This document shows positions 13,730 through 62,901 of a DNA stretch of 64,000 bases, piece after piece. Position 1 is the stretch's first letter. Every line of letters begins with the position of its first letter. Both the position numbers and the translations under genes were made by a program. The notes under the pieces are model-generated. The model saw only the letters and a program-made list of their open reading frames with translations, did not search any database and was not told the DNA's origin. This stretch comes from Escherichia coli (GTDB lineage Bacteria; Pseudomonadota; Gammaproteobacteria; Enterobacterales; Enterobacteriaceae): NCBI RefSeq assembly GCF_029227855.1, contig NZ_CP074356.1. One strand, written 5' to 3'.

Positions 13730-14914
13730 CTAAATATCTTTAATAAACAGCAGGCAAATCATCGCAATACCCAACATCCCTATCGCCAGACAGAACAACG
13801 CATGGTAGCTCCAGATTTCAACCATAATTCCGTCAACAGAGCCGGCGATAATCCAGCCGACGCGTGAAGTATTTGCATATAACGTTGTCGCAGAGCCTAT
13901 TTTTTCAGGCATCAAGTCCTGAAAATAAAGCATGCCGATACCACAGAGAATACCAAGGAAGATGGCATTAAGAATTTGCAATTCCAGCTCAACCGCCGGA
14001 GTCGTCGCCATGAGTACGCTGGCGTAAAAACACATTCCACTCACGATAGCAATGAGCATTAATAGTCGCTTGCCAATACGTTTCATGTAATAGCCTGCGA
14101 TTAACATCATCGGAATTTCCAGACCGGCAGCGATACCAATCATTTCTCCAGCCAGTTTATCGGTTAGATGCAGTTCATCAATAATAAATAGCGGCATATT
14201 TATCATGTAGAGATTATTCGCCGCCCACATCATTGAACAGACCACAAAAAGTAGCCGCGTATCCCGCTTCCTGTGGGTGGAGGGTAAAATTTCTACGGGT
14301 TGGGTAACGACAGGAATATTTCTTTGTATTGATGGCAAAAACAACCAGACTATCAGTCCGCAAACAACAAATGCGATGGCTGCGGTGAGATACATCACTT
14401 TAAAACTAAATCCCATTGCCAGTTCATAAGCGAGCGGTGGCCCGATAACCCAGGCAAGCGAGATCTGAGCACGTAAAAATGTACTGAACATGACCGTCTC
14501 ACGGCCTGTTCTGTCGGCGTGTTCACGGGCGAGGGCGAACATTTGCGGGTTTGCGGTGGAAGCAAAACTACTCAGAAGTACGCCCGTTGAGAGGAGAATG
14601 AAGTAGTTGCGATTCCACGCAAAAAGCGTGCAGGCCAGCACTCCAAATAAGCAACATAGCAGAATCAGTAATTTACGGTCGCCTTGTTTATCGGAGTGCC
14701 TTGCCAGAAATTGACTGACCAGAATTCCCATAATAGCGCTACCGGTGAAGAAAAAACCTACCATTATAGGACGGGCTTTCAGTTCATCTGCGAGGAATAT
14801 ACTTAGGGTAGGAGTCTGAAGAGCGCCCGCAATACCCGTCAGAAAGGCGACAAGTAAAAATGCCGCGGCAGTGAGATCAAGTATTTTTGATGGAGTGGTA
14901 GCCGTTTTTTGCAT
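13730..14914 (-). CDS. setC: Sugar efflux transporter SetC (MFS)
   Basis: 394-aa MFS ORF recognised as SetC/YicK. Confidence 0.88.
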   Translation of the reverse strand: MQKTATTPSKILDLTAAAFLLVAFLTGIAGALQTPTLSIFLADELKARPIMVGFFFTGSAIMGILVSQFLARHSDKQGDRKLLILLCCLFGVLACTLFAWNRNYFILLSTGVLLSSFASTANPQMFALAREHADRTGRETVMFSTFLRAQISLAWVIGPPLAYELAMGFSFKVMYLTAAIAFVVCGLIVWLFLPSIQRNIPVVTQPVEILPSTHRKRDTRLLFVVCSMMWAANNLYMINMPLFIIDELHLTDKLAGEMIGIAAGLEIPMMLIAGYYMKRIGKRLLMLIAIVSGMCFYASVLMATTPAVELELQILNAIFLGILCGIGMLYFQDLMPEKIGSATTLYANTSRVGWIIAGSVDGIMVEIWSYHALFCLAIGMLGIAMICLLFIKDI

Positions 14915-15550
14915 TCTTCTGAATCACCGGGCGAAAAAATATAACTGAGTTACAAATAAGTACCAGTCGAATGAGTATTGTATTAAGAATTTTTGAGTAT
15001 CGCTGATACAACCAGAAAGCAATGCTAGCGCAATATTATAGGGCCAGCAATTGAGATTATTAGTAAAAGCATGTTAAGAATTAATTACCGAATTTATATA
15101 TTAATTATAGTAAGGCAATGAGCTATTTTTGATAGTAAAAATAAAACAAGTTGATTTGATATATTAAATGAACAAATTAATCTTGATGGCAGTCTGATTA
15201 TTGGTGAAGTTTATAGTCAGTTTTTTTCGCCAGCGGTTAAAGAAATAGAATAGTCGTATAAAAAAGGGTGTTCTGGGGCGAGTAAAACAACATCTTCACC
15301 TTAATGGCGATACAGTTGGCTGAGAGTCAGCAGGGGGGCAAATCACCTGCAAATAAACACGGCGCATACTGGCGTGAATATCGCGGATGCGTTCGAGGAC
15401 AGAAGAACCGACAGGCGGATTCTTCAGCCGCTCATCGTCCATCACAAAACCTTAGACCAGGTATTCCTGAAGCCGATTGAATATTGAGCAGTAGAAAATA
15501 TCTGGATTGACAGTATTACAAGGGGTTGGAGAACGTCAGGAGAGGCATTT

Positions 15551-15571
15551 TGGCGGAAGATCACAGGAGTC
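15551..15571 (+). repeat. attL: 21-bp direct repeat of the selC 3' end
   Basis: Exact copy of 27174..27194. Confidence 0.8.
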
Positions 15572-15715
15572 AAAATTGACATATAACAATTTGATTTAAA
15601 TCGTTTATATTTTTCTATTCTAATTCATTTATACACATCCTTATACATATAATATCTATCGATTAATTTTTACACGCATCTTCACGCACGTTAACTCAGG
15701 AAAAAAATTTTTTTT

Positions 15716-16012
15716 TCGGAAGAACTGTTCACACTGTTCACCTTTCTGTTTTCTCCTTTTATTTCAGTTGGATAGGTGGTGAATAATGGGTGAAGGGTGA
15801 ACATTCGATTCTTCACCTCCGGCATTCTGCCGGTGTGACTCATACCGGTGATTAATCCCCCGTGCTGAAATCACACCGGAAGAAAAAAGTTTTTTTTGAT
15901 TTGATTGTTCACACTGTTCACCTTTCATTTTTCTCTTTTAATTTCAGTGTGATAACGGGTGAATATACGGTGAAGGGTGAACAGTGGATTGTTCACCTTC
16001 GGGGAATTCAGG
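15716..16012. repeat. crr-like region: two ~110-bp direct repeats with TGTTCACC/GGTGAACA octamer iterons
   Basis: Block gttcacactgttcacctttc...ggtgaagggtgaaca occurs twice (about 15722 and 15903), immediately downstream of the alpha gene; P4 crr has two 120-bp repeats with alpha-binding type I iterons. Confidence 0.7.
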
Positions 16013-16047
16013 GATAAAAAAAGACCGGCAGATGCCGGTCACGTGGG

Positions 16048-18381
16048 TCAGGTTGTTGCAGGGTCGTCACATTTTGGCAGCCAGTCGCCGTAGCTTTCCT
16101 CTTTCAGCGTCAGGTTGGTCTGTATCCCCTGTTTGGTATGGCGCTTCTCGTAATTCAGTCCGTATTCCTTCAGCATCACCGGCAGCCCCAGCCCGAACAT
16201 TTTCAGACTGAGTACATTCCGGTAGCCGTTTGCCTCCATGTAGGCCAGATAGGCGTGATAGAGGTATTTACGGTAATTGCGCGGGATGATACTGGCGTTC
16301 CCCATATACATGCCGCTGGTCTGCGGCAGGGTTTCCAGATAGCCGATAAAATCAAACGTCGGGTCGGCATCCCGTTTGATGTTCAGCGCCTCGTCTGAGT
16401 TCTGCTGGGACTGAAGCAGTGACCGGGCGAGCATCGGGTCGCTGAACTTCTGCATCAGGTGACGCACGATGACCGCCAGCTCGCGGGTGATTTTGTCCTT
16501 AAGTTGCGGGTCGCGCTCCTGCGGGGCTATCTGTTCCGGGAAGTGAATAATCACCCGCCGGCGTGACACGCCGCCGCTGCGGTCGGTGAAGCGCATCGGG
16601 TTATTGTTCACGGCCAGAATCACCGCCGGGATATGCGTGGAGTACGCATCCCGGTATTTCGGGTCAACGGACACTGCATCGCCGCCGGTGATGGCCTTGA
16701 GTCCGGCTCCGTCGCCGCTCCATTTTTCCTGGTCCGGCAGGCGTATCAGTGAGAAGCCAGTTAACGCGGCACGTTCACGCGGGGATTCCAGCGTCTCAAT
16801 GGTGGCCGACGTGGCGTTATCCTCCCCGGCCAGCAGGGTGGCTATTTCGGCCATGATACTTTTGCCGCTGCCGCCGGGACCGGTCACCTCCAGAAAGAGC
16901 TGCCAGTCGTAGCGGTTTGCCAGCACCATAAACAGTGCGGCCAGAATCACGTCGCGTTTTTCCGCACGGCCACCGGCGGCACGGTCAAGCCAGCGCCAGA
17001 ACGCGGGGGCGTGGGTCTCCAGCGTTTCCCCTTCCACCGGCGGGGTGAAATCCACATCGCACAGGGTGCGCATCCAGTGTGACGGACTGTGCGGGTGGAA
17101 CGTGCCGTTCTGCGTGTCGAGCACGCCGTTACGAAAGCCAATCAGGCGGCGGGAGGGGGCTTCCTGCTGCGGAATAATCAGCTTCAGGGTGTCCACCACG
17201 GAGGCCACCTTCCCGGAGGAGAACGGCGCGCGCAGACGCTGAAACAGCCCGGCCACATCCCGGGCAAAGTCCTGTGGCGGCAGCACCTTCCAGACACCAT
17301 TTTCATAGCGGGACAGAAGCTGGCCGTTGGCATCGACCGCGAGCGCCTCGCCGTAATGCTCATAGATACGCATGGCCTTTTCGCTGGTACTCATGGCGGA
17401 AAACTCCGCTTCGCTCATGGTGTCGAACGGGCTTTCAGCCGGTGGCCGGATGGCATCATAAATGGCCTTACGGGTGGCTTCCCCGCCGTACTGCGTGAAG
17501 GCATCATTCCAGTCACCGAAGACCGGCGGCAGGGCAACAACACCTTCACACGCATCTGCGGCTGCGGCGGCTTTTTTCTGGCCGTCACCACTGAGGTCAC
17601 GGTCAGCGGCAAGGACAATCTGACAGGCGGGGTGCTTCTGCCGGGCAAGGCTGGCCAGAGAAAGGAGGTTCACGGAAGAAAGCGCCACCATCACCGTTTC
17701 ACCGGTCAGGTGATGTACGGTAAGTGCGGTCGCGTATCCCTCCGCTATCCACAGACGTTTTCCGGCCTGATTCTGTCCTTCAAGGGTGTGACAGGTGCCC
17801 CTGACCTGTCCGCCTTTCAGGGTGCGCTTACGGCCGTCAGCACTGATTAACTGAAGGTTAACCAGTTCGCCGCTGTCGTCATACAGTGGCACCACAAGGT
17901 CACCGGCGCGCCAGCTCACGCCACCGGCTCTGTGTGTGCCGGTCAGCATCCGGCATTCCCGGCCGGGAAAGCCCTTGCGGGTCAGGTAGGCGTTACCGGT
18001 TCCGGTACGGGTTTTCGCCATCAGGGTTTGTGCCAGTGCGGCGGCGTTCTTCCGGGCAGCGTCTGTTTCAGCACCGGCGGCGGCCGTCACTGCCGGGTCA
18101 GCCGGGGGCAGGCTGCCGGTCACGGCAGCCACCTTTGCGGCCGCGTCGGACGGGGAAACACCAAACACCTTTTCAACCAGTTTCAGGCCGTCACCGGCAC
18201 CACACTGATTGCAGTACCAGGTGCCGCGCCCCTCCCTGTCATCAAAACGGAAGCGGTCACTCCCGCCACAGACCGGACAGGGCTGATGACGGTTCTTCAG
18301 CACCTGAATCCCCAGCGCCGGGAGAATACGCGGCCAGTGGCCGAGCGCATGGCTGACGGTGGCGGTTACGTTCATTTTCAT
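16048..18381 (-). CDS. P4 alpha-like DNA primase/helicase
   Basis: 777-aa ORF; N-terminal zinc-finger primase motif CPVCGGSDRFRFDD...YCNQCG; Walker A GPGGSGKS in the C-terminal helicase part; same length as P4 alpha. Confidence 0.9.
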   Translation of the reverse strand: MKMNVTATVSHALGHWPRILPALGIQVLKNRHQPCPVCGGSDRFRFDDREGRGTWYCNQCGAGDGLKLVEKVFGVSPSDAAAKVAAVTGSLPPADPAVTAAAGAETDAARKNAAALAQTLMAKTRTGTGNAYLTRKGFPGRECRMLTGTHRAGGVSWRAGDLVVPLYDDSGELVNLQLISADGRKRTLKGGQVRGTCHTLEGQNQAGKRLWIAEGYATALTVHHLTGETVMVALSSVNLLSLASLARQKHPACQIVLAADRDLSGDGQKKAAAAADACEGVVALPPVFGDWNDAFTQYGGEATRKAIYDAIRPPAESPFDTMSEAEFSAMSTSEKAMRIYEHYGEALAVDANGQLLSRYENGVWKVLPPQDFARDVAGLFQRLRAPFSSGKVASVVDTLKLIIPQQEAPSRRLIGFRNGVLDTQNGTFHPHSPSHWMRTLCDVDFTPPVEGETLETHAPAFWRWLDRAAGGRAEKRDVILAALFMVLANRYDWQLFLEVTGPGGSGKSIMAEIATLLAGEDNATSATIETLESPRERAALTGFSLIRLPDQEKWSGDGAGLKAITGGDAVSVDPKYRDAYSTHIPAVILAVNNNPMRFTDRSGGVSRRRVIIHFPEQIAPQERDPQLKDKITRELAVIVRHLMQKFSDPMLARSLLQSQQNSDEALNIKRDADPTFDFIGYLETLPQTSGMYMGNASIIPRNYRKYLYHAYLAYMEANGYRNVLSLKMFGLGLPVMLKEYGLNYEKRHTKQGIQTNLTLKEESYGDWLPKCDDPATT

Positions 18382-18395
18382 GGTGTTGTTCTCCT

Positions 18396-18716
18396 TCAGT
18401 GCAGTACCGGCGCTTTTATGTGACGGGCACAGAGTTCATCCATCACAACCAGCCCGAGAAAGGACAGCGACGGCGCGGCCTTCAGGGGGCCGGATTCCAT
18501 TAAATCTTCCAGCAGGGCACAGGCTATCTGACGCCCTTTTTCCTCACCGTGCTGGCGCAGATAAAAGCCTTCCAGCTCAGCGGCGATGGCCGCCTCCAGT
18601 GATTCAAGGGTGAGATGCGGGTAGCGGTGCTGACGTTCGCACACGGTCAGCCAGGCACAGGCGACAGCGCGACGGTAAAGGGCAGCGCGTAAGACGGGCG
18701 GTAAGGGTGTTTTCAT
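18396..18716 (-). CDS. Hypothetical protein (P4-like left operon, 106 aa)
   Basis: ORF immediately upstream of and co-directional with alpha; no recognised motif. Confidence 0.5.
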
Positions 18717-18851
18717 TTGCTTTCCTCCCTGTGACAGATGACTGCATTCCGTGCCGGTTGCATTAACTGATAAGGCATATCTGCGTCTCCTGAAGACGTG
18801 CGTATCCCTGCGCGAATACGCACATTTAATTTTTCGGGTGTCGTTTTTTAA

Positions 18852-19307
18852 TTACAGATAATTGCGGTAACTGTTATCCGGGGTGATTTCCGGGTCAGGC
18901 TCCGTGCGGGGAATTTCCCGCCATTCCCGCGCCACCTGTGCCGCCCGGCTGACCGGAACAGGGTCCTGCGGGTAAATATCCAGATATTTCTCCCGCCATT
19001 TCTGTAATTCCGGGTCTCCGGCCATTTCTTTCAGTACCGCATGCCGGTTTACGGGGCTGCGTCTGAACAGGTCAGGACGGTCACAGGTAAATTCCCGCAG
19101 AAAACGCCCCAGCGGGATGTCTGTGGTGCGCCCGTCAGCGAGGATACGCACAAGGATACTGAATTTACGGCGGTACGGGTTCCAGACAATGTCCGGGCAG
19201 CGGTACGGCATTTCCCACGGAATACCGTCTTCCAGAATGCCGACCACGGCCACATCGGGAAAACCGGCAGAACGGTAAATCTCACCGGGCTGGGGAAAAT
19301 CAAACAT
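18852..19307 (-). CDS. Hypothetical protein (151 aa; same length as P4 orf151)
   Basis: Co-directional ORF in the left operon; protein-like composition. Confidence 0.55.
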   Translation of the reverse strand: MFDFPQPGEIYRSAGFPDVAVVGILEDGIPWEMPYRCPDIVWNPYRRKFSILVRILADGRTTDIPLGRFLREFTCDRPDLFRRSPVNRHAVLKEMAGDPELQKWREKYLDIYPQDPVPVSRAAQVAREWREIPRTEPDPEITPDNSYRNYL

Positions 19308-19872
19308 GCGTCCTGTCTCCCCGGTCTTTCTGCTGGGCGAGAAAATCGCGGCACAGGCCTTTGGCTTTCAGCTCATTCAGCACAAAATCAATATCTTCAT
19401 TCAGGTAACTGAAAATATGCGGAATGTAGAGCTGATGCAGGCCGGAGAGTTCACGGTGAATCAAATCACCCCCAACAAACTGGGATACGGCGCTGGCGCG
19501 GTTGAGCTTATGGTAAGCCTCAATGCTGAGGTGTTCACGGGCGTCATGACGTGCTGAGACGGTCTGAGGGGCTTTTTTATTACGCACGGGACACCTCCAC
19601 CACCGGCAGACGGGCAGCAAGGGAGAGCACATAGTCACGGACAAGGGAACGGCGGGCACTGCGTTCATCACCGGCCACGGTGCGAAGCATACAGATACGG
19701 GGATGACGGTCTGCGCGACGGACAGCCGCAAACACAAAGACAAATTCAGGGTGTGAGGGGGTAAGGGTTGTAGCCATGATGGCAGCCTCCTGTGAATAGC
19801 AAATAACGCTATCGCCGGAGTTCTCACGCTCGATGGCGATAGCCCAGACGGGGGTGAGAATACCGGCTTCAC
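19300..19872 (-). CDS. Hypothetical protein, start uncertain
   Basis: C-terminal ~85 aa look protein-like; the N-terminal part is P/S/L/R-rich and overlaps another frame; putative GTG start. Confidence 0.3.
19580..19777 (-). CDS. Hypothetical small protein (65 aa; C-terminal part of the 214-aa ORF)
   Basis: Internal ATG ([12 protein letters not shown]...) gives a compact ORF ending at the stop at 19580; the upstream part of the 214-aa ORF overlaps vis and is probably not coding. Confidence 0.25.
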
Positions 19873-20175
19873 AGGATACCGGCCAGCCCGGAGGCTGCCC
19901 CGCCTGAGCTACCATTGACTCTGCGGCATAATGAGCGGACGCGGGCAGGATGCACGGAATGCCATCTGCACGACTGACCACACACCACACCATAATCTGG
20001 CGCTCTGTGGCATTGATTGCGACACAAAAAAAGACGCGTGGCGCGTCATATGTCGCCTGTGAATTGCTCGGGTTCTCACGCCCGGCTGCCGATTTTGCGG
20101 CAGCGGAAAAACTATATCCGCAAATGCCGGAAAAAGGCAAGCCAGAAAAAGGGAGTTTTTGCAGAGCGGGCATCA

Positions 20176-20442
20176 TCATGCGTCGTACCCCCGTTTGCGT
20201 CCGGCAATGCGTCCGGCCATCCATGCGGTGACTTCAGAGTGCAGCCAGGCCACATTTTTACCGCCAAGACTCACCTGCGGCGGAAATTCCCCCTTACGGA
20301 TGAGTTCATAGATGGTCGAGCGTGACAGGCCGCACAGGTGCATCACTTCCGGCAGACGTAAAAAACGCTCCTGCGTGATGTCCGGCAGCGGCATCAGTGG
20401 CGTCACTGGGGCGGGAGACGGGGAAGAAAAAACAGATTGCAT
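20176..20442 (-). CDS. AlpA/Vis-family phage transcriptional regulator (88 aa)
   Basis: AlpA-type HTH signature FLRLPEV...[15 protein letters not shown]; same length as P4 Vis (orf88). Confidence 0.78.
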
Positions 20443-20545
20443 CGGGCTACCTCGTTAATGTCCATACAGCACCGGATAAGTCCGTCCGGCTTCGGGTAGC
20501 GCTTTATTTTGTGAATATTTTCGGCAGACGCAACAGGGGGGGATT

Positions 20546-20563
20546 TGTTCCGGCAGTCTTACA
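20546..20563. promoter_or_regulatory. TGT-N12-ACA site (Ogr/Delta-type activator box), candidate leftward late promoter
   Basis: TGTtccggcagtcttACA ~110 bp upstream of the vis start; P2/P4 late promoters carry TGT-N12-ACA centred near -55. Confidence 0.4.
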
Positions 20564-20719
20564 ATGGCTGTGTATTTTTTGTACATCAGCGCCAGATAGC
20601 TTTAAAACGCTCTGGAAGGAGCTGGAAAAAATTATAGTGAAATACAAATTGTTTTTTCTTATTTATTTCAGTGAATTAATAAAAATAAAAAGTAATGAAC
20701 AGCACAAAAAGCCCATTAA

Positions 20720-20830
20720 CGGGTGAACAGTGGTGAACAGACGGTGAACAGTCATTACTGCGATTGTTCACCCTTTAACTTACTGTATTACTTATCTTTT
20801 TTCTTATGGTGAACAGAGGTGAACAGTAAA
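20720..20830. repeat. ori-like cluster of GGTGAACAG iterons
   Basis: Five direct copies and one inverted copy of GGTGAACA(G) within ~110 bp, ~4.8 kb from the crr-like repeats, as in P4. Confidence 0.65.
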
Positions 20831-20904
20831 ATATAAAAAAACAAACAGTAAGCCGGTTTTTCCTGCGACCTTTTCCTGGCTTGCCGGTCTGAGGATGAGT
20901 CTCC

Positions 20905-20922
20905 TGTGTCAGGGCTGGCACA
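20905..20922. promoter_or_regulatory. TGT-N12-ACA site, candidate Psid late promoter activator box
   Basis: TGTgtcagggctggcACA centred ~80 bp upstream of the sid ATG. Confidence 0.45.
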
Positions 20923-20994
20923 TCTGCAATGCGTCGTGTTGTTGTCCGGTGTACGTCACAATTTTCTTAACCTGAAGTGACGAGGAGCCGGAAA

Positions 20995-21729
20995 ATGTCT
21001 GACAACACCATCCCTGAATATCTGCAACCCGCGCTGGCACAACTGGAAAAGGCCAGAGCCGCCCATCTTGAGAACGCCCGCCTGATGGATGAGACCGTCA
21101 CGGCCATTGAACGGGCAGAGCAGGAAAAAAATGCGCTGGCGCAGGCCGACGGAAACGACGCTGACGACTGGCGCACGGCCTTTCGTGCAGCCGGTGGTGT
21201 CCTGAGCGACGAGCTGAAACAGCGCCACATTGAGCGCGTGGCACGCCGGGAGCTGGTACAGGAATATGACAATCTGGCCGTGGTGCTGAATTTTGAACGT
21301 GAACGCCTGAAAGGGGCGTGTGACAGCACGGCCACCGCCTACCGGAAGGCACATCATCACCTGCTGAGTCTGTATGCAGAGCATGAGCTGGAACACGCCC
21401 TGAATGAAACCTGTGAGGCGCTTGTCCGGGCAATGCATCTGAGCATTCTGGTACAGGAAAATCCGCTCGCCAACACCACCGGCCATCAGGGCTACGTCGC
21501 ACCGGAAAAGGCTGTCATGCAGCAGGTGAAATCATCGCTGGAACAGAAAATAAAACAGATGCAAATCAGCCTCACCGGCGAGCCGGTTCTCCGGCTGACC
21601 GGACTGTCAGCGGCAACACTCCCGCACATGAATTATGAGGTGGCAGGCACACCGGCACAGCGCAAGGTGTGGCAGGACAAAATAGACCAGCAGGAAGCAG
21701 AGCTTAAGGCCAGAGGGCTGCTGTCATGA
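20995..21729 (+). CDS. sid: P4 Sid-like capsid size determination (external scaffold) protein
   Basis: 244 aa from MSDNTIPEY; coiled-coil-rich; first gene of the sid-delta-psu arrangement. Confidence 0.78.
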   Translation: MSDNTIPEYLQPALAQLEKARAAHLENARLMDETVTAIERAEQEKNALAQADGNDADDWRTAFRAAGGVLSDELKQRHIERVARRELVQEYDNLAVVLNFERERLKGACDSTATAYRKAHHHLLSLYAEHELEHALNETCEALVRAMHLSILVQENPLANTTGHQGYVAPEKAVMQQVKSSLEQKIKQMQISLTGEPVLRLTGLSAATLPHMNYEVAGTPAQRKVWQDKIDQQEAELKARGLLS

Positions 21730-22226
21730 TTTACTGCCCGTCGTGTGGACATGTTGCTCACACCCGTCGCGCACATTTCATGGACGATGGCACCAAGATA
21801 ATGATTGCACAGTGCCGGAATATTTATTGCTCTGCGACATTTGAAGCGAGTGAAAGCTTTTTCTCTGACTGTAAAGATTCAGGAATGGAATACATTTCAG
21901 GCAAACAGAGATACCGCGATTCACTGACGTCGGCCTCCGGCAGTATGAAACGCCCGAAAAGAATGCTTGTTACCGGATATTGTTGTCGGAGATGTAAAGG
22001 CCTTGCACTGTCAAGAACATCGCGGCGTCTGTCTCAGGAAGTCACCGAGCGTTTTTATGTGTGCACGGATTCGGGCTGTGGTCTGGTGTTTAAAACGCTT
22101 CAGACCATCAACCGCTTCATTGTCCGCCCGGTCACACCGGACGAACTGGCAGAACGCCTGCATGAAAAACAGGAACTGCCGCCAGTACGGTTAAAAACAC
22201 AATCATATTCGCTGCGTCTGGAATGA
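21726..22226 (+). CDS. delta: P4 Delta-like late-gene activator (tandem Ogr-type zinc fingers)
   Basis: 166 aa; two Ogr-like Cys motifs (CPSCGH...CRNIYC and CCRRCKG...CTDSGC); start overlaps sid stop. Confidence 0.88.
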   Translation: MIYCPSCGHVAHTRRAHFMDDGTKIMIAQCRNIYCSATFEASESFFSDCKDSGMEYISGKQRYRDSLTSASGSMKRPKRMLVTGYCCRRCKGLALSRTSRRLSQEVTERFYVCTDSGCGLVFKTLQTINRFIVRPVTPDELAERLHEKQELPPVRLKTQSYSLRLE

Positions 22227-22299
22227 GGGCTGCCGGTTAACCCCGGCCGTCGCCGCACACCGTATTTTTATTCTTCAGCATGATGAGAAAGAGATAACG

Positions 22300-22872
22300 A
22301 TGGAAAGCACAGCCTTACAGCAGGCCTTTGACACCTGTCAGAATAACAAAGCAGCATGGCTGCAACGCAAAAATGAGCTGGCAGCGGCCGAACAGGAATA
22401 CCTGCGGCTTCTGTCAGGAGAAGGCAGAAACGTCAGTCGCCTGGACGAATTACGCAATATTATCGAAGTCAGAAAATGGCAGGTGAATCAGGCCGCCGGT
22501 CGTTATATTCGTTCGCATGAAGCCGTTCAGCACATCAGCATCCGCGACCGGCTGAATGATTTTATGCAGCAGCACGGCACAGTACTGGCGGCCGCACTGG
22601 CACCGGAGTTGATGGGCTACAGTGAACTGACGGACATTGCCCGAAACTGTGCCATACAGCGTGCCACAGATGCCCTGCGTGAAGCCCTTCTGTCCTGGCT
22701 TGCGAAGGGGGAAAAAATTAATTATTCCGCACAGGATAGCGACATTTTAACGACCATCGGATTCAGGCCTGACGCGGCTTCGGTGGATGACAGCCGTGAA
22801 AAATTCACCCCTGCGCAGAACATGATTTTTTCGCGTAAAAGTGCGCAACTGGCATCACATCAGTCTGTGTAA
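22300..22872 (+). CDS. psu: P4 Psu-like polarity suppression / capsid decoration protein
   Basis: 190-aa ORF following delta; same length and position as P4 Psu. Confidence 0.78.
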   Translation: MESTALQQAFDTCQNNKAAWLQRKNELAAAEQEYLRLLSGEGRNVSRLDELRNIIEVRKWQVNQAAGRYIRSHEAVQHISIRDRLNDFMQQHGTVLAAALAPELMGYSELTDIARNCAIQRATDALREALLSWLAKGEKINYSAQDSDILTTIGFRPDAASVDDSREKFTPAQNMIFSRKSAQLASHQSV

Positions 22873-23036
22873 AACTCCCCGAAAATCCGTCCGATTTTAC
22901 TGAAAAAAGCCATGCATCGATAAGGTGCATGGCTTTGCATGCGTTTCCCTGCCTCATTTTCTGCAAACCGCGCCATTCCCGGCGCGGTCTGAGCGTGTCT
23001 GTGCAACTGCATTAAAACCGCCCTGCAAAGCGGGCG

Positions 23037-23055
23037 GGCGAGGCGGGGAAAGCAC
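23037..23055 (+). other. P2/P4-type cos site
   Basis: Exact 19-mer GGCGAGGCGGGGAAAGCAC, the P2/P4 cohesive-end sequence as I recall it, between psu and the cargo operon. Confidence 0.78.
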
Positions 23056-23076
23056 TGCGCGCACGAGAGTAAAACA

Positions 23077-23739
23077 TTACTCAATTGAAAAATGTAACAT
23101 TCCTCTCTCTCTCGGTGTAATGGTGTTGGGATGAACTAACCGTTCCATTTCAAAACCAAAATCATGATAAGCAGTATTATAAAAAGAGCTTAAAATAAAT
23201 TTCACAAACGTTACCGGACATAATGGTGACGACAATGGTATCCGGCAATTTTTAAACTGACCTAGGGTTAGGTGTGCTGCTGGATGAATAACATCATTAG
23301 CGTCATCAGGGGCATAATCCACTCGTATCGGAACGGGTAAAATTGATTTTTGGACAATGTCAGCATAAAAGTTGCTTTCGTCTAAATATAACTCAGGGTC
23401 ATTCTGGAATGATTCGTAATTAGGCGCGGGGAAATAACATAGTCTTTCTTTTACAAGTTTCATTCGACGATCAAACTGAAATAAAAGATGGAGTAACCCA
23501 CCATCTAATAATTTGATATTATATTGCCTTTTTTCGTCCAAGAAGTTATAGATATCAACATACTCAATATTTCTTAATGCAATTGAAGTATCAGCGAATC
23601 CGCTATAGCTGACATAATAATATTCTTTATCCCGTGTTATTACAGGATAGTTTTGTGCGTCACTGATACCCACTGATATCAGATGAGATGTGATTTTTCT
23701 AATTGCTGCGCAAATGCTACTTGAGTTCATCTCATTCAC
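23077..23739 (-). CDS. Hypothetical protein, second gene of the satellite cargo operon (candidate defense partner/effector)
   Basis: 220-aa ORF; start overlaps or lies 1 nt after the stop of the upstream helicase-like gene; AT-rich; no recognisable catalytic motif or TM segment. Confidence 0.7.
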   Translation of the reverse strand: MNEMNSSSICAAIRKITSHLISVGISDAQNYPVITRDKEYYYVSYSGFADTSIALRNIEYVDIYNFLDEKRQYNIKLLDGGLLHLLFQFDRRMKLVKERLCYFPAPNYESFQNDPELYLDESNFYADIVQKSILPVPIRVDYAPDDANDVIHPAAHLTLGQFKNCRIPLSSPLCPVTFVKFILSSFYNTAYHDFGFEMERLVHPNTITPRERGMLHFSIE

Positions 23740-25828
23740 CCTTCAGTTGCTTAATTAAAGCAAGGCGTAATTCTTCTGGTATATCTTCAACTCTAACTTG
23801 TCCATCCAATAGAACCATGAGATTATGGGCGTTCAATTTAGCTTGGTGTACTCTTTTTCTCTCTTGAGAAGTCATATCCCTGTTCACCAGTCGCATTTTT
23901 TTACGCTCTGCTTCTGTTGGGTATGTAAATTCCAGTTTAAATCCTCTTTGTTTCACCTCATTGTATTCGTTAATCAGGCCATCAAAGGAAGAACCCACAC
24001 CACATACACGAAGCCATGCTTTAGTTCTTGTCATTGCAGTAAAAAGGATATTTCTACGCTTTGCCAGTTCATAATCCACGTTGCAATAATGAGCATCCAT
24101 GATGTATACCATAGCTGCTTCGTTTCCCTTTGCTCTGAATATGGATGTAAATGTTACACTATTGTCTGAGAAAAACTCATCAGGAGAGCTTGTAATTCCA
24201 GCTATAGATGTATTAATTCCGTTTTGGAATAAAAGGTCACGCAGATAACCTACTTCATTTCTCATACGTATTGTATCTGGGTGAATTACAACAATGTCGC
24301 TAGGTAATATCTCTTCCTCATGAATATTTTTAAATATTTCCTGCGCAATCCAATTAGATTGAGAATGCTTGTCTTCAAATTTAACAAACTGGATCATCTC
24401 ATCAATTGAGTTATGTGCACTCAATAGGGATGGGCTAGATTTCGTTGTCCTTGATAATATAACCTCCTTTCCCTCAACTAATTCACCATCTATTTTTTCA
24501 TAACCAATCTCTGTCCATAATCCTTCAAAATCAAACATCTGAATTATTGGTTTATGATAAATACCAAACCCTAAAGCATGAGCCGTGGTTAAGATTGGGC
24601 CTGGATTTCGATAACAAATGTCTAAAGTTATATCTTGTTCTTCACTGGTGAAACTAACAATTGGTTTTCCATGCTCGTCTACTCCCCAAATTTGTTCAGG
24701 AGAAGGCATGGATGAATCCCCAAGATTTTGTAATTCATCATAAGCGTAAACTAATCGTTTCTTTTCCCCTAGCAAAGAATAACATATGCGGAGAAACTCA
24801 ATTGAAAAATCTTGAGCCTCATCAATAAGGATGAAATCATATAATTTCTTATCTTCTTTTTTATTATCGAGGAAGTTCTTACAGGCAGCCTGAAAAGGTG
24901 TTTCATTAAATTCTGCAAGACGACGTGCGCCGTTATAATCGTAATAAGGTATATTATGTGCCACACATGCGTTGTAATATAAACCTTCTGTTTTAGAGCC
25001 GCCCCAGGCATGAATAATGTCTACGTTATCCCAATCAATTCCATTATCATCTGCGAATGCTGAGACTAAATGTTTTAGTTGCTCTTTGAGAGAGCGACTA
25101 TTGAAAGTAACTGCTATTTTCCAGTGAGGATTTTGTGAGTGTATATGTGCAATTTTTCGAGCGAGAACAATAGTCTTACCTGAGCCAGCAAGCCCACGAA
25201 TCCTTTGGACATTATCAATATTGACCAAGACGGCAGTCGTTTGACTAGAATCAAGAGTGGCAAGTGAATTCTCCAATTTTTTTAGTACGCTACCCTTTGA
25301 GTCAATCTGTCTGACATAGCTTCTTTTTCTCTTGGGCTTCAATTTTGAAAGTGATTGAACATGGGATAGTAAAGTTTCAAGAAGGGAACCATCATCCCAG
25401 GTAATGTCATTGAGAATAGATAATATTTCATCAACATTGGAACTAATGCTTAAACCACTGTCACAATCAAAATCATCAATATTTATACAGTTTGGTGCGA
25501 AAACAATACTGTTCACAGGTACGTTTAATATTCTGTTTTTAGTCAGTGCTTTTACTTCAGAAAGTTTTGCGACGAATTTCATGTGCATTTCGTCAATGAT
25601 ATCAATATCATCTTGGGTTAACTCTCTTTCCTCATTGAAATGGAAAATGACAACACCATGCTTTGATGAGCAAATTAGACCATCAAGAGTAACATTGTTT
25701 TCGCTTAGAAAAATAACAGGAAAACCGCGATAATAATATCCAGTTATATCATTTATCTTTCTTATTGAATTTTCTAGAATATCAGAAACAGTATGATTCT
25801 GAGGTTTCATTCCCAATATTTCAATCAT
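23732..25828 (-). CDS. SF1 (UvrD-like) helicase-family ATPase with ~200-aa N-terminal domain of unknown function; candidate defense protein
   Basis: 698 aa; Walker A GLAGSGKT (res ~212-219), motif II LIDEAQDF (res ~334-341), C-terminal FRAKGNEAAMVYI and FTAMTRTKAWL resembling UvrD-like helicase C-terminal motifs; GGAG Shine-Dalgarno 8 nt before the ATG; start overlaps the int stop. Confidence 0.85.
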   Translation of the reverse strand: MIEILGMKPQNHTVSDILENSIRKINDITGYYYRGFPVIFLSENNVTLDGLICSSKHGVVIFHFNEERELTQDDIDIIDEMHMKFVAKLSEVKALTKNRILNVPVNSIVFAPNCINIDDFDCDSGLSISSNVDEILSILNDITWDDGSLLETLLSHVQSLSKLKPKRKRSYVRQIDSKGSVLKKLENSLATLDSSQTTAVLVNIDNVQRIRGLAGSGKTIVLARKIAHIHSQNPHWKIAVTFNSRSLKEQLKHLVSAFADDNGIDWDNVDIIHAWGGSKTEGLYYNACVAHNIPYYDYNGARRLAEFNETPFQAACKNFLDNKKEDKKLYDFILIDEAQDFSIEFLRICYSLLGEKKRLVYAYDELQNLGDSSMPSPEQIWGVDEHGKPIVSFTSEEQDITLDICYRNPGPILTTAHALGFGIYHKPIIQMFDFEGLWTEIGYEKIDGELVEGKEVILSRTTKSSPSLLSAHNSIDEMIQFVKFEDKHSQSNWIAQEIFKNIHEEEILPSDIVVIHPDTIRMRNEVGYLRDLLFQNGINTSIAGITSSPDEFFSDNSVTFTSIFRAKGNEAAMVYIMDAHYCNVDYELAKRRNILFTAMTRTKAWLRVCGVGSSFDGLINEYNEVKQRGFKLEFTYPTEAERKKMRLVNRDMTSQERKRVHQAKLNAHNLMVLLDGQVRVEDIPEELRLALIKQLKGE

Positions 25829-27011
25829 TTTGAACTCCGGTAGATAAATTCATCAAAAAATCCGAGTATTTTTGCATCATATATTTTCTTTTATCAAGAT
25901 ACAAAGCATGATTATATGTGCCTCGGATAGTATTCTTATCAACATGTGCGAGCTGAATCTCAATCCATGCGCTCTCAAATCCCATTTCATGAAGAATTGT
26001 CGATAGTGTATGCCTAAAACCATGACCAGTAGTTCTTCCCTTATAACCTAATGATTCAATAACTTGGTTTACACTTTCTTTGCTTATCGGTTTTCTACGA
26101 TCATTTCTGCCAATAAAAACATAGGGATAGTCCGATGTTATCGGTTGTAGTTGTTTAAACAGTTCAATTACCTGAGATGATAAAGGTACTATATGTGGCC
26201 GACGCATTTTCATCCGTTCAGCAGGTATTTCCCAGATACCTTTTATCAAATCAATTTCACTCCAAGTTGCAAAACGCATTTCCTGCGTCCTGACTCCTGT
26301 CATCATTAGGATCTTGGTTGCGTTTTTGGTAATAATACTTCCAGTATATGACTCTAGATCTCTAACAAAATGAGGTAGCTCTTCCGCGGATAAAAACGGA
26401 TGATGCCTTTGCTTGGGAATAGCCAAAGCGATTGCTAAATCAGGCGCCGGATTGTATTCAGCACGGCCAGTGATGATCGCGTAGCGAAACACTTCTCCAC
26501 ATCGTTGGCGAACTTTTCTGGTTTTCTCCAACGCTCCACGTTTTTCGATGCGCTTAAGTACTTCAAGCAGTTCTAATGGCTTAATTTCAGATATTGGGCG
26601 TTTACCAATGAAAGGAAAAACGTCCTGTTCGAATGTTTTAATAATTTCCTCCCGATAAGCGATAGTCCAGCGATCTGCTTTTGCTGCATGCCATTCTCTG
26701 CTAACTGACTCAAAAGAATTTTCAGTTGATAATTTTTGAGCAAGTTTCTGAGCCTTCCGTTCTTCTACTGGGTCTATGCCGTTTGCTACCTGCTTACGTG
26801 CAGTATCACGTTTCTCTCGTGCTTCTGCGAGGCTAACAAGTTCGTAACTACCAAATGACATTAGCCGTGCTTTACCGGCGAAACGAAAGCGGAAGCGCCA
26901 GCCCTTTGAACCGTCTGGCTTGATGAGTAGTGACAAACCGTGCCCATCATTCATTGTATATGGTTTGTCTTGTGGTTTTGCGCGTTTGATTTGTATATCG
27001 GTTAGAGCCAT
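25821..27011 (-). CDS. int: P4-type tyrosine integrase
   Basis: 396 aa; catalytic HGFRHT...(R)...Y motifs in the C-terminus; N-terminal P4-integrase-like region; lies next to selC. Confidence 0.93.
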   Translation of the reverse strand: MALTDIQIKRAKPQDKPYTMNDGHGLSLLIKPDGSKGWRFRFRFAGKARLMSFGSYELVSLAEAREKRDTARKQVANGIDPVEERKAQKLAQKLSTENSFESVSREWHAAKADRWTIAYREEIIKTFEQDVFPFIGKRPISEIKPLELLEVLKRIEKRGALEKTRKVRQRCGEVFRYAIITGRAEYNPAPDLAIALAIPKQRHHPFLSAEELPHFVRDLESYTGSIITKNATKILMMTGVRTQEMRFATWSEIDLIKGIWEIPAERMKMRRPHIVPLSSQVIELFKQLQPITSDYPYVFIGRNDRRKPISKESVNQVIESLGYKGRTTGHGFRHTLSTILHEMGFESAWIEIQLAHVDKNTIRGTYNHALYLDKRKYMMQKYSDFLMNLSTGVQND

Positions 27012-27173
27012 GTGTATAACTGAAAACTGCGTATGAAGATTCTATACACATTACTATACATATTTTTCGCGGATTCAGGGAGATGATCTCGGACTATTAC
27101 GGACAAGATGATTATTTATGATATTGAATATAAAGGATTTTATGGAGTATCTCGGAACTGGCTGGATGAAGTT

Positions 27174-27268
27174 TGGCGGAAGATCACAGGAGTCGAACCT
27201 GCCCGGGACCGCTGGCGGCCCCAACTGGATTTGAAGTCCAGCCGCCTCACCGGAGACGACGATCTTCC
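27174..27268 (-). tRNA. selC: tRNA-Sec (selenocysteine tRNA, UCA anticodon)
   Basis: 95-nt match to the selC sequence as I recall it, on the minus strand, including long variable arm and CCA end. Confidence 0.93.
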
Positions 27269-27560
27269 GCGCCTCGATTGCTACATGGAGGCGGGGCGCA
27301 TTATAGCTACTTCCTTGAGTTTCTACATCCCCCAGATCAGTTTTTTCCGCCTAATACACGCAGCGTATTATCACGAAAGCATTATAGTTCATATAAAACC
27401 CATATTTTACAATGATATATGAGCGGAATTAACGCTACCACGATCACATAAAACAAGAATCATAAATTAATAACCAGATATCGGAATATTCGCTCTCACA
27501 GGGATGGTTTACAAAATGCGTTATCGGTCTCAGCACCCCTATAGCATCAAGGAAAAGCAG

Positions 27561-36032: not shown

Positions 36033-36899
36033 ATGAAAAAGCGTCGGAAGGAACCGGAAACGCTACGTGAACACTGTCGCCATATTTTTGGTGATGAGCC
36101 GCCAGTGCTCTGTGTATGGGAAACGGAATTTGATTACGCAGATGCCGAACTCAAGGCGCTGGCGGCTAAAGAGTGGCAGCAGATCAGCGAATGGGATTTG
36201 AGTGCTTACTATGTACTCAATCTCGTTTATAACGAACCGATGCAAATAGAGTTGTTTCGCTATCTGTTTCCGCTCTGCCTGGCGCAATGGCATGAAACCG
36301 TTTTAGCTGGCGGTTATGGTGATCACTTCGAAGAATCCTTAATGAAGGCATTGTGTCGGCCCTATCTCTGGCAGGAGATGATGAATGCTTCCCAACGCCA
36401 GCAGGTACGGCAATTTTTACTGGACACCGCGTTGCAGCGTATGGATAACGAGCGTGGTTTCAATAACGTTCTTTGCTGGCTGGCGGTGTTCAATACTCTG
36501 GGTGGGGCCGCGCCGTTAATTCGTTCTCTCTGGTCGCGCTGGTGGGCGCTGGATACGCCAGGAAAAGCGGTGTGTGCTATTCAGTATGCCGCGCATCTAA
36601 TTTATCCCATAGAAGCCAATCCGTTATGGTCGCAAGAATGGATAGGCTGGGGGCATCCATTAGGCCATAAAGATGGCTGGTCCTCTGATAATCGCGCTTT
36701 TCTTCGCCAAATGTTAACACCTGAAATGATTGTGGCTGGCGTACAGGCAGCGGCTGAAATTCTGCGTGGTGAACCGGAAGGCGCAATGGCGGCGCGAATT
36801 GCACAGGATGCGTATGAGGCAATGGATATCCTCACTATCCAGATTGAAGATTTACTGCGTGACTTGTCTTGTGATGAGTCTGGTCATGCGTTGGAGTAA
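36033..36899 (+). CDS. Hypothetical protein (288 aa), not recalled in K-12 at this position
   Basis: ATG 2 nt after the gltS stop; protein-like composition; 3' end overlaps the recG 3' end by 16 bp. Confidence 0.5.
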   Translation: MKKRRKEPETLREHCRHIFGDEPPVLCVWETEFDYADAELKALAAKEWQQISEWDLSAYYVLNLVYNEPMQIELFRYLFPLCLAQWHETVLAGGYGDHFEESLMKALCRPYLWQEMMNASQRQQVRQFLLDTALQRMDNERGFNNVLCWLAVFNTLGGAAPLIRSLWSRWWALDTPGKAVCAIQYAAHLIYPIEANPLWSQEWIGWGHPLGHKDGWSSDNRAFLRQMLTPEMIVAGVQAAAEILRGEPEGAMAARIAQDAYEAMDILTIQIEDLLRDLSCDESGHALE

Positions 36900-59035: not shown

Positions 59036-60052
59036 ATGAGTGCCCACTATTTTAATCCACAAGAGATGATCAATAAGACAATCATCTTCGATGAAAGGCC
59101 AGCGGCGTCAGTGGCATCATCATTCCATGTTGCTTATGGCATTGATAAAAACTTTCTTTTTGGTTGTGGTGTTTCAATCACGTCAGTTTTGTTACATAAC
59201 AACGACGTGAGTTTTGTTTTCCACGTTTTTATTGATGATATCCCTGAAGCCGATATCCAGCGTTTAGCCCAATTGGCGAAAAGCTATCGTACCTGTATCC
59301 AGATCCATCTGGTAAATTGTGAACGGCTTAAGGCATTACCGACGACCAAAAATTGGTCTATTGCCATGTATTTCCGTTTTGTAATTGCAGATTACTTTAT
59401 TGATCAACAAGATAAGATCCTTTACCTGGATGCTGATATCGCCTGTCAGGGAAACTTAAAGCCGCTGATAACAATGGATCTTGCCAATAACGTTGCTGCT
59501 GTTGTTACTGAACGCGATGCTAACTGGTGGTCGTTACGGGGTCAAAGTCTGCAGTGTAATGAACTTGAAAAGGGTTACTTTAATTCAGGTGTCCTGTTAA
59601 TTAATACACTAGCGTGGGCGCAGGAGTCCGTTTCTGCTAAAGCGATGTCGATGCTTGCTGATAAAGCCATCGTTTCCCGTTTAACCTATATGGATCAAGA
59701 TATCCTTAATCTTATCCTGTTAGGGAAAGTTAAATTCATTGATGCTAAATACAATACGCAATTTAGTTTAAATTATGAATTAAAAAAATCATTTGTTTGT
59801 CCAATTAATGATGAAACCGTATTAATTCATTATGTCGGCCCGACAAAACCCTGGCATTACTGGGCCGGTTATCCAAGTGCGCAACCTTTTATCAAAGCCA
59901 AAGAAGCATCGCCCTGGAAAAATGAACCGTTAATGCGGCCAGTTAACTCAAACTATGCTCGTTATTGCGCCAAGCATAATTTTAAACAAAACAAACCAAT
60001 TAACGGGATAATGAATTATATTTATTATTTTTATTTAAAGATAATAAAATGA
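59036..60052 (+). CDS. waaO: GT8-family LPS outer-core alpha-glycosyltransferase (WaaO-like)
   Basis: 338 aa; GT8 DxD motif YLDADI; position directly after waaP as in R1/R4 core types. Confidence 0.68.
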   Translation: MSAHYFNPQEMINKTIIFDERPAASVASSFHVAYGIDKNFLFGCGVSITSVLLHNNDVSFVFHVFIDDIPEADIQRLAQLAKSYRTCIQIHLVNCERLKALPTTKNWSIAMYFRFVIADYFIDQQDKILYLDADIACQGNLKPLITMDLANNVAAVVTERDANWWSLRGQSLQCNELEKGYFNSGVLLINTLAWAQESVSAKAMSMLADKAIVSRLTYMDQDILNLILLGKVKFIDAKYNTQFSLNYELKKSFVCPINDETVLIHYVGPTKPWHYWAGYPSAQPFIKAKEASPWKNEPLMRPVNSNYARYCAKHNFKQNKPINGIMNYIYYFYLKIIK

Positions 60053-60068
60053 AATTGAGAAAAGTTAA

Positions 60069-61064
60069 ATGAATGAATTTATAAAAGAACGGTTTTCGTA
60101 TTTAGCAGATAATAAAAAAGAAAACGCCCCAGAGCTAAATGTTTCCTACGGTATCGATAAGAATTTTTTGTATGGTGCTGGCGTTTCAATTTCTTCCGTT
60201 TTGATTAATAATTCAGATATTAATTTTGTCTTTCATGTTTTCACTGATTATGTGGATGATGATTATTTAAAGTCATTTAATGAAACAGCAAAACAATTTA
60301 ATACCTCAATTATTGTATATTTAATTGACCCCAAATACTTTGCTGATCTGCCGACGTCACAGTTTTGGTCGTACGCGACATACTTCAGGGTATTGTCTTT
60401 TGAATATCTGAGTGAAAGTATTTCCACACTGCTGTATCTGGATGCCGATGTTGTTTGTAAAGGAAGCCTGAAACCTCTCACAGAAATTATATTTAAAGAT
60501 GAGTTTGCTGCGGTCATTCCTGACAATGATAGTACTCAGGCGGCATGTGCAAAACGCCTCAACATTCCCGAAATGAATGGACGTTATTTCAATGCAGGCG
60601 TTATCTATGTCAATCTTAAAAAATGGCATGAAGCAAATTTGACACCGTATTTACTCAAACTTTTACGAGGGGAAACTAAATATGGCTCTCTTAAATATTT
60701 AGATCAGGATGCGTTGAATATCGCATTTAATATGAATAATATCTACCTTGCGAAGGATTTTGATACTATTTATACCCTGAAAAACGAACTTTATGATCGT
60801 AGTCATCGAAAGTATCAGCAAACCATTACCGATAAAACAGTGTTGATTCACTATACAGGGATAACTAAACCATGGCATAGCTGGGCTGGATATCCGTCTG
60901 CATCATACTTTAATATCGCGCGTGAACAATCTCCCTGGAAGAAATATCCTCTTAAAGAGGCGCGGACTGTTGCAGAAATGCAGAAACAATATAAGCATCT
61001 GTTTGCCCATGGTGAGTATATAAAAGGCATAACTTCATTAATTAAGTACAAGCTTAAGAAATAA
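60069..61064 (+). CDS. waaT: GT8-family LPS outer-core alpha-glycosyltransferase (WaaT-like)
   Basis: 331 aa; GT8 motif YLDADV; second GT8 before the kinase. Confidence 0.62.
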   Translation: MNEFIKERFSYLADNKKENAPELNVSYGIDKNFLYGAGVSISSVLINNSDINFVFHVFTDYVDDDYLKSFNETAKQFNTSIIVYLIDPKYFADLPTSQFWSYATYFRVLSFEYLSESISTLLYLDADVVCKGSLKPLTEIIFKDEFAAVIPDNDSTQAACAKRLNIPEMNGRYFNAGVIYVNLKKWHEANLTPYLLKLLRGETKYGSLKYLDQDALNIAFNMNNIYLAKDFDTIYTLKNELYDRSHRKYQQTITDKTVLIHYTGITKPWHSWAGYPSASYFNIAREQSPWKKYPLKEARTVAEMQKQYKHLFAHGEYIKGITSLIKYKLKK

Positions 61065-61073
61065 ATTACTCTT

Positions 61074-61766: not shown

Positions 61767-61791
61767 ACCACACAGTCAAAACGGAACCAAC

Positions 61792-62817: not shown

Positions 62818-62901
62818 TAATAAAAATCATGGATGTCTGAGTTACAATAATAATTAAGGATGAGTACTATCATATTTTATTAGTTCAGGCAAGAGAACAC
62901 G

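Follow-up and report, generated by a model that had tools for sequence, protein, structure and literature searches.

Two compartments of contrasting base composition in a predicted P4-type satellite prophage at selC of Escherichia coli

In P4-like satellites a defence hotspot lies between psu and int, next to cos, and it was from this hotspot that the two-gene Helicase+DUF2290 system was described, a Klebsiella pneumoniae SB5961 representative of which inhibits T7 (Rousset et al. 2022, PMC9122126). Frequent exchange of integrases in these satellites (PMC8628076) and very rapid swapping of cassettes on near-identical cores (Moura de Sousa et al. 2026 preprint, 10.64898/2026.02.27.708500) have also been published. 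Here we analyzed a 64,000-nucleotide stretch of Escherichia coli DNA (contig NZ_CP074356.1, hereafter the window), in which positions 15549-27194 are predicted to form an 11.6-kb P4-type satellite prophage integrated in selC. We consider it very probable that this satellite is built of two compartments, that the arm between cos and the attachment site (att) is replaced as a block, and that the AT-richness of this arm is a stable equilibrium. As in the published hotspot, a variable cassette stands beside cos and near-identical cores carry unrelated defences. The window differs from it in that, relative to P4, the exchanged unit also takes in the integrase gene (int) and att, and in that the first cargo gene begins with a start codon overlapping the int stop.

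The alternation of GC-rich and AT-rich segments is in itself an ordinary, already-known property of the family, and it is visible in the P4 reference. Composition and codon terms (varied by paper) were absent from the main text of the three papers cited above, and the sole mildly new point made here is that the compositional contrast is stable and not transient. Taken alone, the locus matters little, being a clean and completely resolved instance of the modular P4-like design already published.

The selC satellite and its relation to phage P4

The comparison with P4 (X51522 / NC_001609) was performed using blastn. Positions 15703-23036 align to P4 4291-11624 and positions 23037-23063 to P4 1-27, in a collinear match that keeps the P4 gene order (98.1% identity, 7,335 aligned positions), and no P4 DNA match was found elsewhere in the island, 23064-27194 included. 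Because the match is confined to 15703-23063, the core is essentially that of P4, and the whole cos-to-att arm has been replaced. In the integrated form this arm corresponds to 23064-27194 together with 15549-15702, the short segment from att to crr. Both elements have in common the core between crr and cos, the gene order and the 19-nucleotide (nt) cos end, and the same mosaic can be observed in P4, where the GC content is 0.34-0.37 in the cargo, 0.46 in int and 0.49-0.61 in the core genes. The P4 arm differs, as it consists of gop, beta and cII with its own attachment site and integrase, whereas the window arm carries Helicase+DUF2290 and a selC-type integrase, about 40% identical in amino acids (aa), whose target is tRNA-Sec. 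A P4-type integrase was located at tRNA-Leu in one compared element (L011). The replaced arm measures 4,262 bp in both P4 and the window; related elements span 10.5-11.6 kb, and we treat the equal length as probably a coincidence within the packaging limit.

The island lies in the E. coli selC neighbourhood, with a major facilitator superfamily transporter (13730-14914, named setC in related genomes) on one side and, beyond tRNA-Sec, yicJ and then yicI on the other. Its 23-bp att repeat occurs in two exact copies in the window, with 0 such matches in 100 shuffles, and the spacing of the copies gives an excised length of 11,623 bp, compared with 11,624 bp for phage P4. A search for further copies of the att core, such as a tandem or older island would leave, gave no third one at up to 3 mismatches. 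Every gene of the island was assigned with Pfam and PADLOC. The region 23037-27011, to which the preliminary description had drawn attention, runs from the cos cleavage site to the int start codon. The features are as follows.

15549..15571: attR, 23-bp direct repeat TTTGGCGGAAGATCACAGGAGTC, copying the 3' end of tRNA-Sec
15572..15702: att-proximal segment without P4 similarity, 96-99% shared with other elements of the selC type; likely to be attP arm sequence
15703..16002: crr (cis replication region), AT-rich, containing two 120-bp direct repeats 180 bp apart
16048..18381, minus strand: alpha primase/helicase (Zn_Ribbon_Prim, Toprim_3, D5_N, Pox_D5), GC 0.611; 99.2-99.4% aa identity to P4 alpha
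18396..20442, minus strand: P4 left operon (orf106, orf151, epsilon, cI/Icd-like region, orf88), GC 0.55-0.60; 97-99% nt identity to P4, orf88 being AlpA/Vis-like and 97.7% identical in aa to P4
20443..20976: AT-rich non-coding trough with P4 ori repeats and divergent promoters, GC 0.34 (sliding windows 0.39-0.42); diversity 0.134 among aligned elements, P4 ori mapping to about 20498-21221
20995..21729, plus strand: sid (capsid size determination), 98.8% aa identity to P4 Sid
21726..22226, plus strand: delta (Ogr/Delta transactivator), Ogr_Delta Pfam match, 97.6% aa identity to P4
22300..22872, plus strand: psu (polarity suppression/capsid decoration), PF07455 (4.6e-88), 97.9% aa identity to P4
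23037..23063: cos, 19-nt cohesive end GGCGAGGCGGGGAAAGCAC (23037-23055) followed by TGCGCGC; the region also matches P2-type phages at 90-95% identity
23077..23730, minus strand: DUF2290 protein, 217 aa, ATG at 23730, PF10053 (6e-48)
23732..25828, minus strand: UvrD-like superfamily 1 helicase, partner of DUF2290 in the Helicase+DUF2290 defence pair
25821..27011, minus strand: selC-type P4-family tyrosine integrase (Arm-DNA-bind_3, Phage_int_M, Phage_integrase)
27012..27171: int upstream region with putative promoter and arm sites; 99.5% identical in elements with the same module, 80-97% in other selC elements
27172..27194: attL, the 23-bp repeat TTTGGCGGAAGATCACAGGAGTC again, overlapping the tRNA-Sec 3' end
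27174-27268, minus strand: tRNA-Sec

The cargo pair has the same two-gene architecture as the published Helicase+DUF2290 system, and both proteins were matched over their full length by PADLOC (helicase, PDLC03002, 2e-265; DUF2290, PDLC02999, 2e-77). The cargo is a predicted anti-phage Helicase+DUF2290 system, already catalogued. A structure model of the DUF2290 protein (predicted local distance difference test score 82) yielded no convincing structural relative. The longer, 220-aa version of this protein in the list of open reading frames (ORFs), with a GTG start at 23739, is probably unused; the RefSeq/PGAP annotation and the orthologues have the 217-aa form.

The int gene ends in a TGA (25823-25821) that overlaps the helicase ATG (25828-25826), a GGAG lying ahead of the latter at 25838-25835, and the helicase stop is separated from the DUF2290 ATG by a 1-nt spacer. 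The overlap of the two codons suggests that the cargo is co-transcribed with int, in an operon led by int. In several other P4-type elements the first cargo gene likewise abuts or overlaps the int stop, by -11 to +4 nt (L003 12944-12954, L013 13334-13337, L014 12579-12580 and L022 10001-10004). A scan of 22800-27300 gave 7 promoter-like sites, compared with 14.5 expected from shuffles, which speaks neither for nor against such an operon, and one terminator-like hairpin at 23037-23018 on the minus strand, overlapping cos.

The integrase carries the arm-binding (PF13356), central (PF22022) and catalytic (PF00589) domains, all above the cut-offs, and shares 39-41% aa identity with P4 Int, compared with 99% for alpha. 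The att core of the element sits within the 3' end of tRNA-Sec, which fits a selC-class integrase, and relatives with 82-89% aa identity also adjoin tRNA-Sec in E. coli, Hafnia, Leclercia and Erwinia. Compared with the int genes of three other selC elements, the nucleotide identity is about 90% over the first 600 nt, then 70-80%, and about 50-60% over the last 100 nt. Judging from this alignment, selC elements that differ in their cargo alone have the breakpoint within int.

Exchange of the cos-to-att arm among satellites

In order to compare arms on closely related cores, we used a set of eleven E. coli P4-type elements whose alpha proteins are at least 98.8% identical. These eleven elements carry ten unrelated cargos and integrases of three classes, directed to selC (tRNA-Sec), leuX (tRNA-Leu) and ssrA, the leuX and ssrA classes being about 40% identical to the selC class of the window. 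The cargos are gop/beta/cII, HEPN, a gene annotated as gapS4a with two small hypothetical ORFs, TIR, a restriction enzyme, AAA+HNH, HAD+TM, another helicase pair, and two sets of hypothetical genes. The cargo cassettes of all compared elements join the core at the same place, 7 nt after the 19-nt cos end. The cos 19-mer followed by TGCGCGC is shared by 14 of 14 elements (window, L003, L010-L013, L015, L017, L018, L024-L027 and P4), P4 and L017 having CGC in the first three positions of TGCGCGC, and the relatedness ends between 23063 and 23064. The delta-psu-cos segment was found at 95-99% identity in more than 1,000 genomes, and among the full-length matches listed the match ends at window positions 23060-23063.

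The 3,975-bp block formed by int and the cargo was found with an identity of at least 99.8% in 25 of 5,426 complete genomes, and within those 25 genomes it never occurs there with another int or another cargo. In one further genome (strain EA7, L002 12288-14042), only a truncated int beside IS1 is kept, and the remainder of the satellite is deleted together with part of setC. When seven elements with the same block were compared with the window, between 0 and 6 of 4,131 block sites differed, and between 64 and 646 of 7,361 core sites. In these elements the tracts of near-identity reach different distances into the core, and two types of delta/psu alleles are present. The yicJ-yicI flank is 100% identical in many genomes that do not belong to the 25 with the block and at least 99% identical in 2,967; it is common whether or not the block is present.

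Since the block diverges at 0-6 sites while the cores diverge at 64-646, the history of the cargo, and of the integrase and att site that go with it, is separate from that of the cores that carry it, and younger. The satellite cores are themselves recombinant. The preliminary description had proposed that the cargo, and possibly int, differ in origin from the core; this proposal is supported, on the basis of the comparison of elements and not of composition alone.

It should also be mentioned that, leftward from the junction, the first core polymorphism among the elements with the same block lies at a distance of 39 to 478 nt. On an identical int+cargo block, a delta of 81 aa with a psu of 187 aa (L025 6487-7319, L026 6479-7311) can be contrasted with a delta of 166 aa and a psu of 190 aa (window 21726-22872).

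The proposed mechanism can be outlined as follows. The first compartment is a core for replication and helper hijacking (crr, alpha, left operon, ori, sid, delta, psu and cos), GC-rich to host-like in composition. The second is the AT-rich cos-to-att arm, in which a selC-specific int is followed immediately by the Helicase+DUF2290 operon. The mosaic very probably arises by block replacement of this arm, through recombination between satellites that share a core. One end of the block would be the fixed nucleotide 7 nt past cos; the other would lie at att, or within int in cases where the cargo alone is changed. Recombination also takes place among the cores. One candidate route is tandem integration at att followed by a crossover between cores; in another, the cos ends would act as the recombination substrate, as proposed by Rousset et al. 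2022 (PMC9122126). In practical terms, one such swap would alter both the defence carried and the chromosomal address, because the exchanged unit includes the integrase along with the att site.

Several points weigh against this reading. The linkage of int and cargo in 25 of 25 genomes could reflect the recent spread of one variant and not a rule, and defence genes have been found to be only weakly linked to every core gene tested (Spearman ≤0.2; 10.64898/2026.02.27.708500). The low divergence of the block could stem in part from a faster divergence of the cores via gene conversion with P4-like copies residing in the same genome, in up to 6 places per genome.

A second position for cargo can be observed in one selC P4-type element (L003 4334-6221), in which a retron St85 reverse transcriptase and its effector lie between alpha and attR. 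The segment from the primase to att is a minor second hotspot (10.64898/2026.02.27.708500).

Base composition, codon usage and their persistence

The sliding-window GC content was 0.31-0.40 over 23200-26199, 0.43-0.44 over 26200-27199 and 0.54-0.65 over 16200-20599; together with the codon usage presented below, this confirms that composition is not uniform across the element. The values of GC and of GC at third codon positions (GC3) were 0.611/0.716 for alpha, 0.580/0.653 for sid, 0.524/0.555 for psu, 0.491/0.485 for delta, 0.410/0.325 for int, 0.361/0.282 for the helicase and 0.359/0.303 for DUF2290. As host reference we used 35 flanking ORFs of at least 200 aa (GC 0.521, sd 0.034; GC3 0.567, sd 0.065), from which the AT-rich waa cluster was left out because it would otherwise inflate the host GC variance. 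Relative to this reference, the GC3 z-scores were -4.4 for the helicase, -4.1 for DUF2290, -3.8 for int, -1.3 for delta, -0.2 for psu, +1.3 for sid and +2.3 for alpha. Furthermore, the GC3 of alpha (0.72) is higher than that of all 40 host ORFs examined (maximum 0.673). The preliminary description had called alpha, sid, delta and psu GC-rich, which holds for alpha and sid, whereas delta and psu proved to be host-like. The strong AT-richness that it had attributed to the cargo operon was borne out. Int, also described there as AT-rich, is intermediate.

Synonymous codon choice differs from that of the host pool in the helicase (chi-square 436, 41 degrees of freedom, p 2e-67), in int (p 2e-21) and in alpha (p 7e-28). 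The codons AGA, ATA, CTA and TTA are used in the cargo at 2-9 times the host frequency (per 1000 codons, cargo and host: AGA 20.7 and 2.3, ATA 27.3 and 5.8, TTA 34.9 and 16.5). An unsupervised entropy segmentation, free of annotation, placed a breakpoint at 23069/23070; P4 homology ends 6 bp away, at 23063. Within int, GC per quarter is 0.45, 0.44, 0.40 and 0.34 from 5' to 3', and the last quarter is the most AT-rich one in 13 of 13 elements. Two troughs of AT-rich non-coding DNA interrupt the core, one at crr (15703-16002) and one at the ori/promoter region (about 20443-20976).

The same low GC was found in other cargos: besides that of P4 (0.34-0.37), the other sampled E. coli cargos have GC 0.30-0.36, and their int genes 0.41-0.47. 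For the analysis of orthologues, a contig scan with the helicase alone gave one E. coli locus, and searches for homologous proteins and their encoding contigs were used instead. P4-like elements of Hafnia, Leclercia and Erwinia have the int-helicase-DUF2290 arrangement at tRNA-Sec (aa identity 85/84/76% for the helicase and 85/87/82% for int, respectively), and in another enterobacterium the module lies at tRNA-Thr (helicase 63%, int 60% identical). In these four orthologous modules, cargo GC is 0.34-0.37, and that of alpha, sid and psu 0.53-0.64. At the four-fold degenerate sites of conserved helicase residues, 61-66% of positions differ between orthologues, which is close to saturation, and the GC of these sites is still 0.18-0.26. 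In alpha, 39-44% of the four-fold sites differ and their GC is still 0.74-0.84. In an Aeromonas P2-like prophage, the same cargo has a GC of 0.35-0.38 among genes of 0.57-0.60 (GC3 0.71-0.73).

Thus, the two compartments are at different stable compositional equilibria, both off the host and in opposite directions. AT-richness alone does not date the swap and is not a mark of recency, because all sampled cargos are equally AT-rich and the orthologues keep their composition past saturation. Since the contrast is stable over long divergence, atypical GC in islands of this kind should not be used in practice as a clock for recent acquisition.

Two further observations were made on the orthologues. 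At about 84-87% protein identity, four-fold divergence is 0.58-0.64 for int and helicase and 0.43-0.44 for alpha (L005, L008, L009, L022). Moreover, the identities of int and helicase co-vary across lineages (85/85, 87/84, 82/76 and 60/63%), and that of alpha is steady at 83-84%.

Explanations for the contrast, and neighbouring loci

The difference between the two compositions may be explained by three ideas that do not exclude one another, in one of which a weakly constrained cargo would relax to an AT-biased mutational equilibrium. Another is that AT-richness is selected: the cargo and the 3' part of int would recruit silencing of the H-NS type, or rare codons would limit expression, either of which would keep a costly or toxic defence operon low. 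H-NS prefers AT-rich acquired DNA. This idea is compatible with block replacement of a stably AT-rich arm, and we regard it as possible, although on balance improbable. The composition is retained where synonymous sites are saturated, the rare codons AGA, ATA, CTA and TTA abound in the cargo, and the trait is common to all ten cargo types; however, a four-fold GC of 0.18-0.26 may be nothing else than an AT-biased mutational equilibrium under weak selection.

The remaining idea links composition to recombination. GC-biased gene conversion is reportedly a published hypothesis for bacteria, and this or an equivalent force would have driven a core with many partners to GC-richness, with cassettes that lack partners relaxing to an AT-biased equilibrium and int being intermediate. 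We consider this rather unlikely, although several observations agree with it. GC3 decreases in the order alpha, sid, psu, delta, int and cargo, which is roughly the order of conservation; the GC of int and its identity to other selC int genes fall together from 5' to 3'; alpha exceeds every host ORF examined in GC3 (n=40); and the core is visibly mosaic from recombination. Over 36 windows of 200 nt in 17 elements, core GC is negatively correlated with diversity (Spearman -0.48, p 0.003), but crr, ori, the cI region and delta drive this correlation, the AT-richness of crr and ori is functional, and the windows are non-independent. In addition, conservation may stem from purifying selection and not from recombination. 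It is doubtful that composition tracks the number of homologous partners from the core through the 5' half and the 3' end of int to the unique cargo, and equally doubtful that two equilibria with four-fold GC of about 0.8 and about 0.2 persist past synonymous saturation for this reason. If these equilibria nevertheless reflected GC-biased conversion in a constantly recombining core, opposed to AT-biased mutation in cassettes that lack partners, P4-like satellites with exchanged cassettes, of which there are thousands, would constitute a natural experiment on a disputed force in bacterial genome evolution.

According to the amelioration model, the cargo, and perhaps int, would have been imported recently from a low-GC donor, and their un-ameliorated signature would decay toward that of the element or host. 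The atypical GC and codon usage of a tRNA-linked island (GC3 z-scores of -3.8 to -4.4) resemble what this model describes, the deviation from both host and core is strong, and the near-invariance of the block in 25 E. coli genomes implies a recent spread within E. coli. However, the predicted convergence toward the composition of the carrier is absent: in four other enterobacterial lineages the synonymous sites are saturated and their four-fold GC is still 0.18-0.26, the same system is AT-rich in Aeromonas next to genes with GC3 of 0.71-0.73, and the unrelated cargo of P4 and nine other cargos are equally AT-rich. Both compartments, moreover, deviate from the host, in opposite directions. Recent import is therefore very unlikely and largely refuted already.

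It is even harder to accept that only the cargo is exchanged, as a helicase/DUF2290 cassette beside an int that belongs to a vertically inherited core, and we hold this to be highly improbable. The published hotspot is indeed defined between psu and int (PMC9122126), and other selC elements with different cargos share about 90% of the 5' half of int. On the other hand, int is 39-41% identical to that of P4 when alpha is 99% identical, near-identical cores are found at selC, leuX and ssrA with three int classes, and int is 99.8% conserved along with the cargo on cores that differ by 1-9%. The four-fold divergence of int from its orthologues (0.58-0.70) is also close to that of the cargo (0.61-0.76) and not to that of alpha (0.39-0.44). 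Finally, a GC gap caused by amino-acid composition or by chance deserves next to no credence, for although GC at first and second codon positions differs too (cargo 0.44-0.47/0.33, alpha 0.65/0.47), the largest contrast is synonymous (GC3 0.28-0.30 vs 0.72), the four-fold GC at conserved residues is about 0.2 vs about 0.8, the codon chi-square has a p of 2e-67, and the segmentation finds the boundary unaided.

Outside the island, a second AT-rich block, unrelated to it, was observed at 59036-63885. Its five ORFs (GC 0.33-0.38) are the lipopolysaccharide outer-core (waa) genes, encoding three family-8 glycosyltransferases, WaaY and a family-2 glycosyltransferase. Between gltS and recG (36033-36899) there is a 288-aa ORF with no Pfam match, which is annotated as hypothetical in the related genome L003 and is absent from L002.

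The segment just outside attR (14934-15548) is AT-rich (GC 0.37) and is probably a remnant of an older selC island; a rhuM pseudogene is annotated there in related genomes (about 15311-15472), and an intact rhuM is present in L017, L018 and L026. The selC islands that bear the locus of enterocyte effacement (LEE) use the same tRNA-Sec target and integrase family, the int genes of O157, O26 and O145 strains matching that of the window at 80-82% nt identity. Islands of the LEE type are large, whereas the int of the window is part of a complete satellite of 11.6 kb with att repeats at its ends. In an O145:H28 genome (L010 1-2518), a selC P4-type satellite with a gene annotated as gapS4a is directly adjoined by LEE type III secretion genes, so that two islands share one tRNA site.

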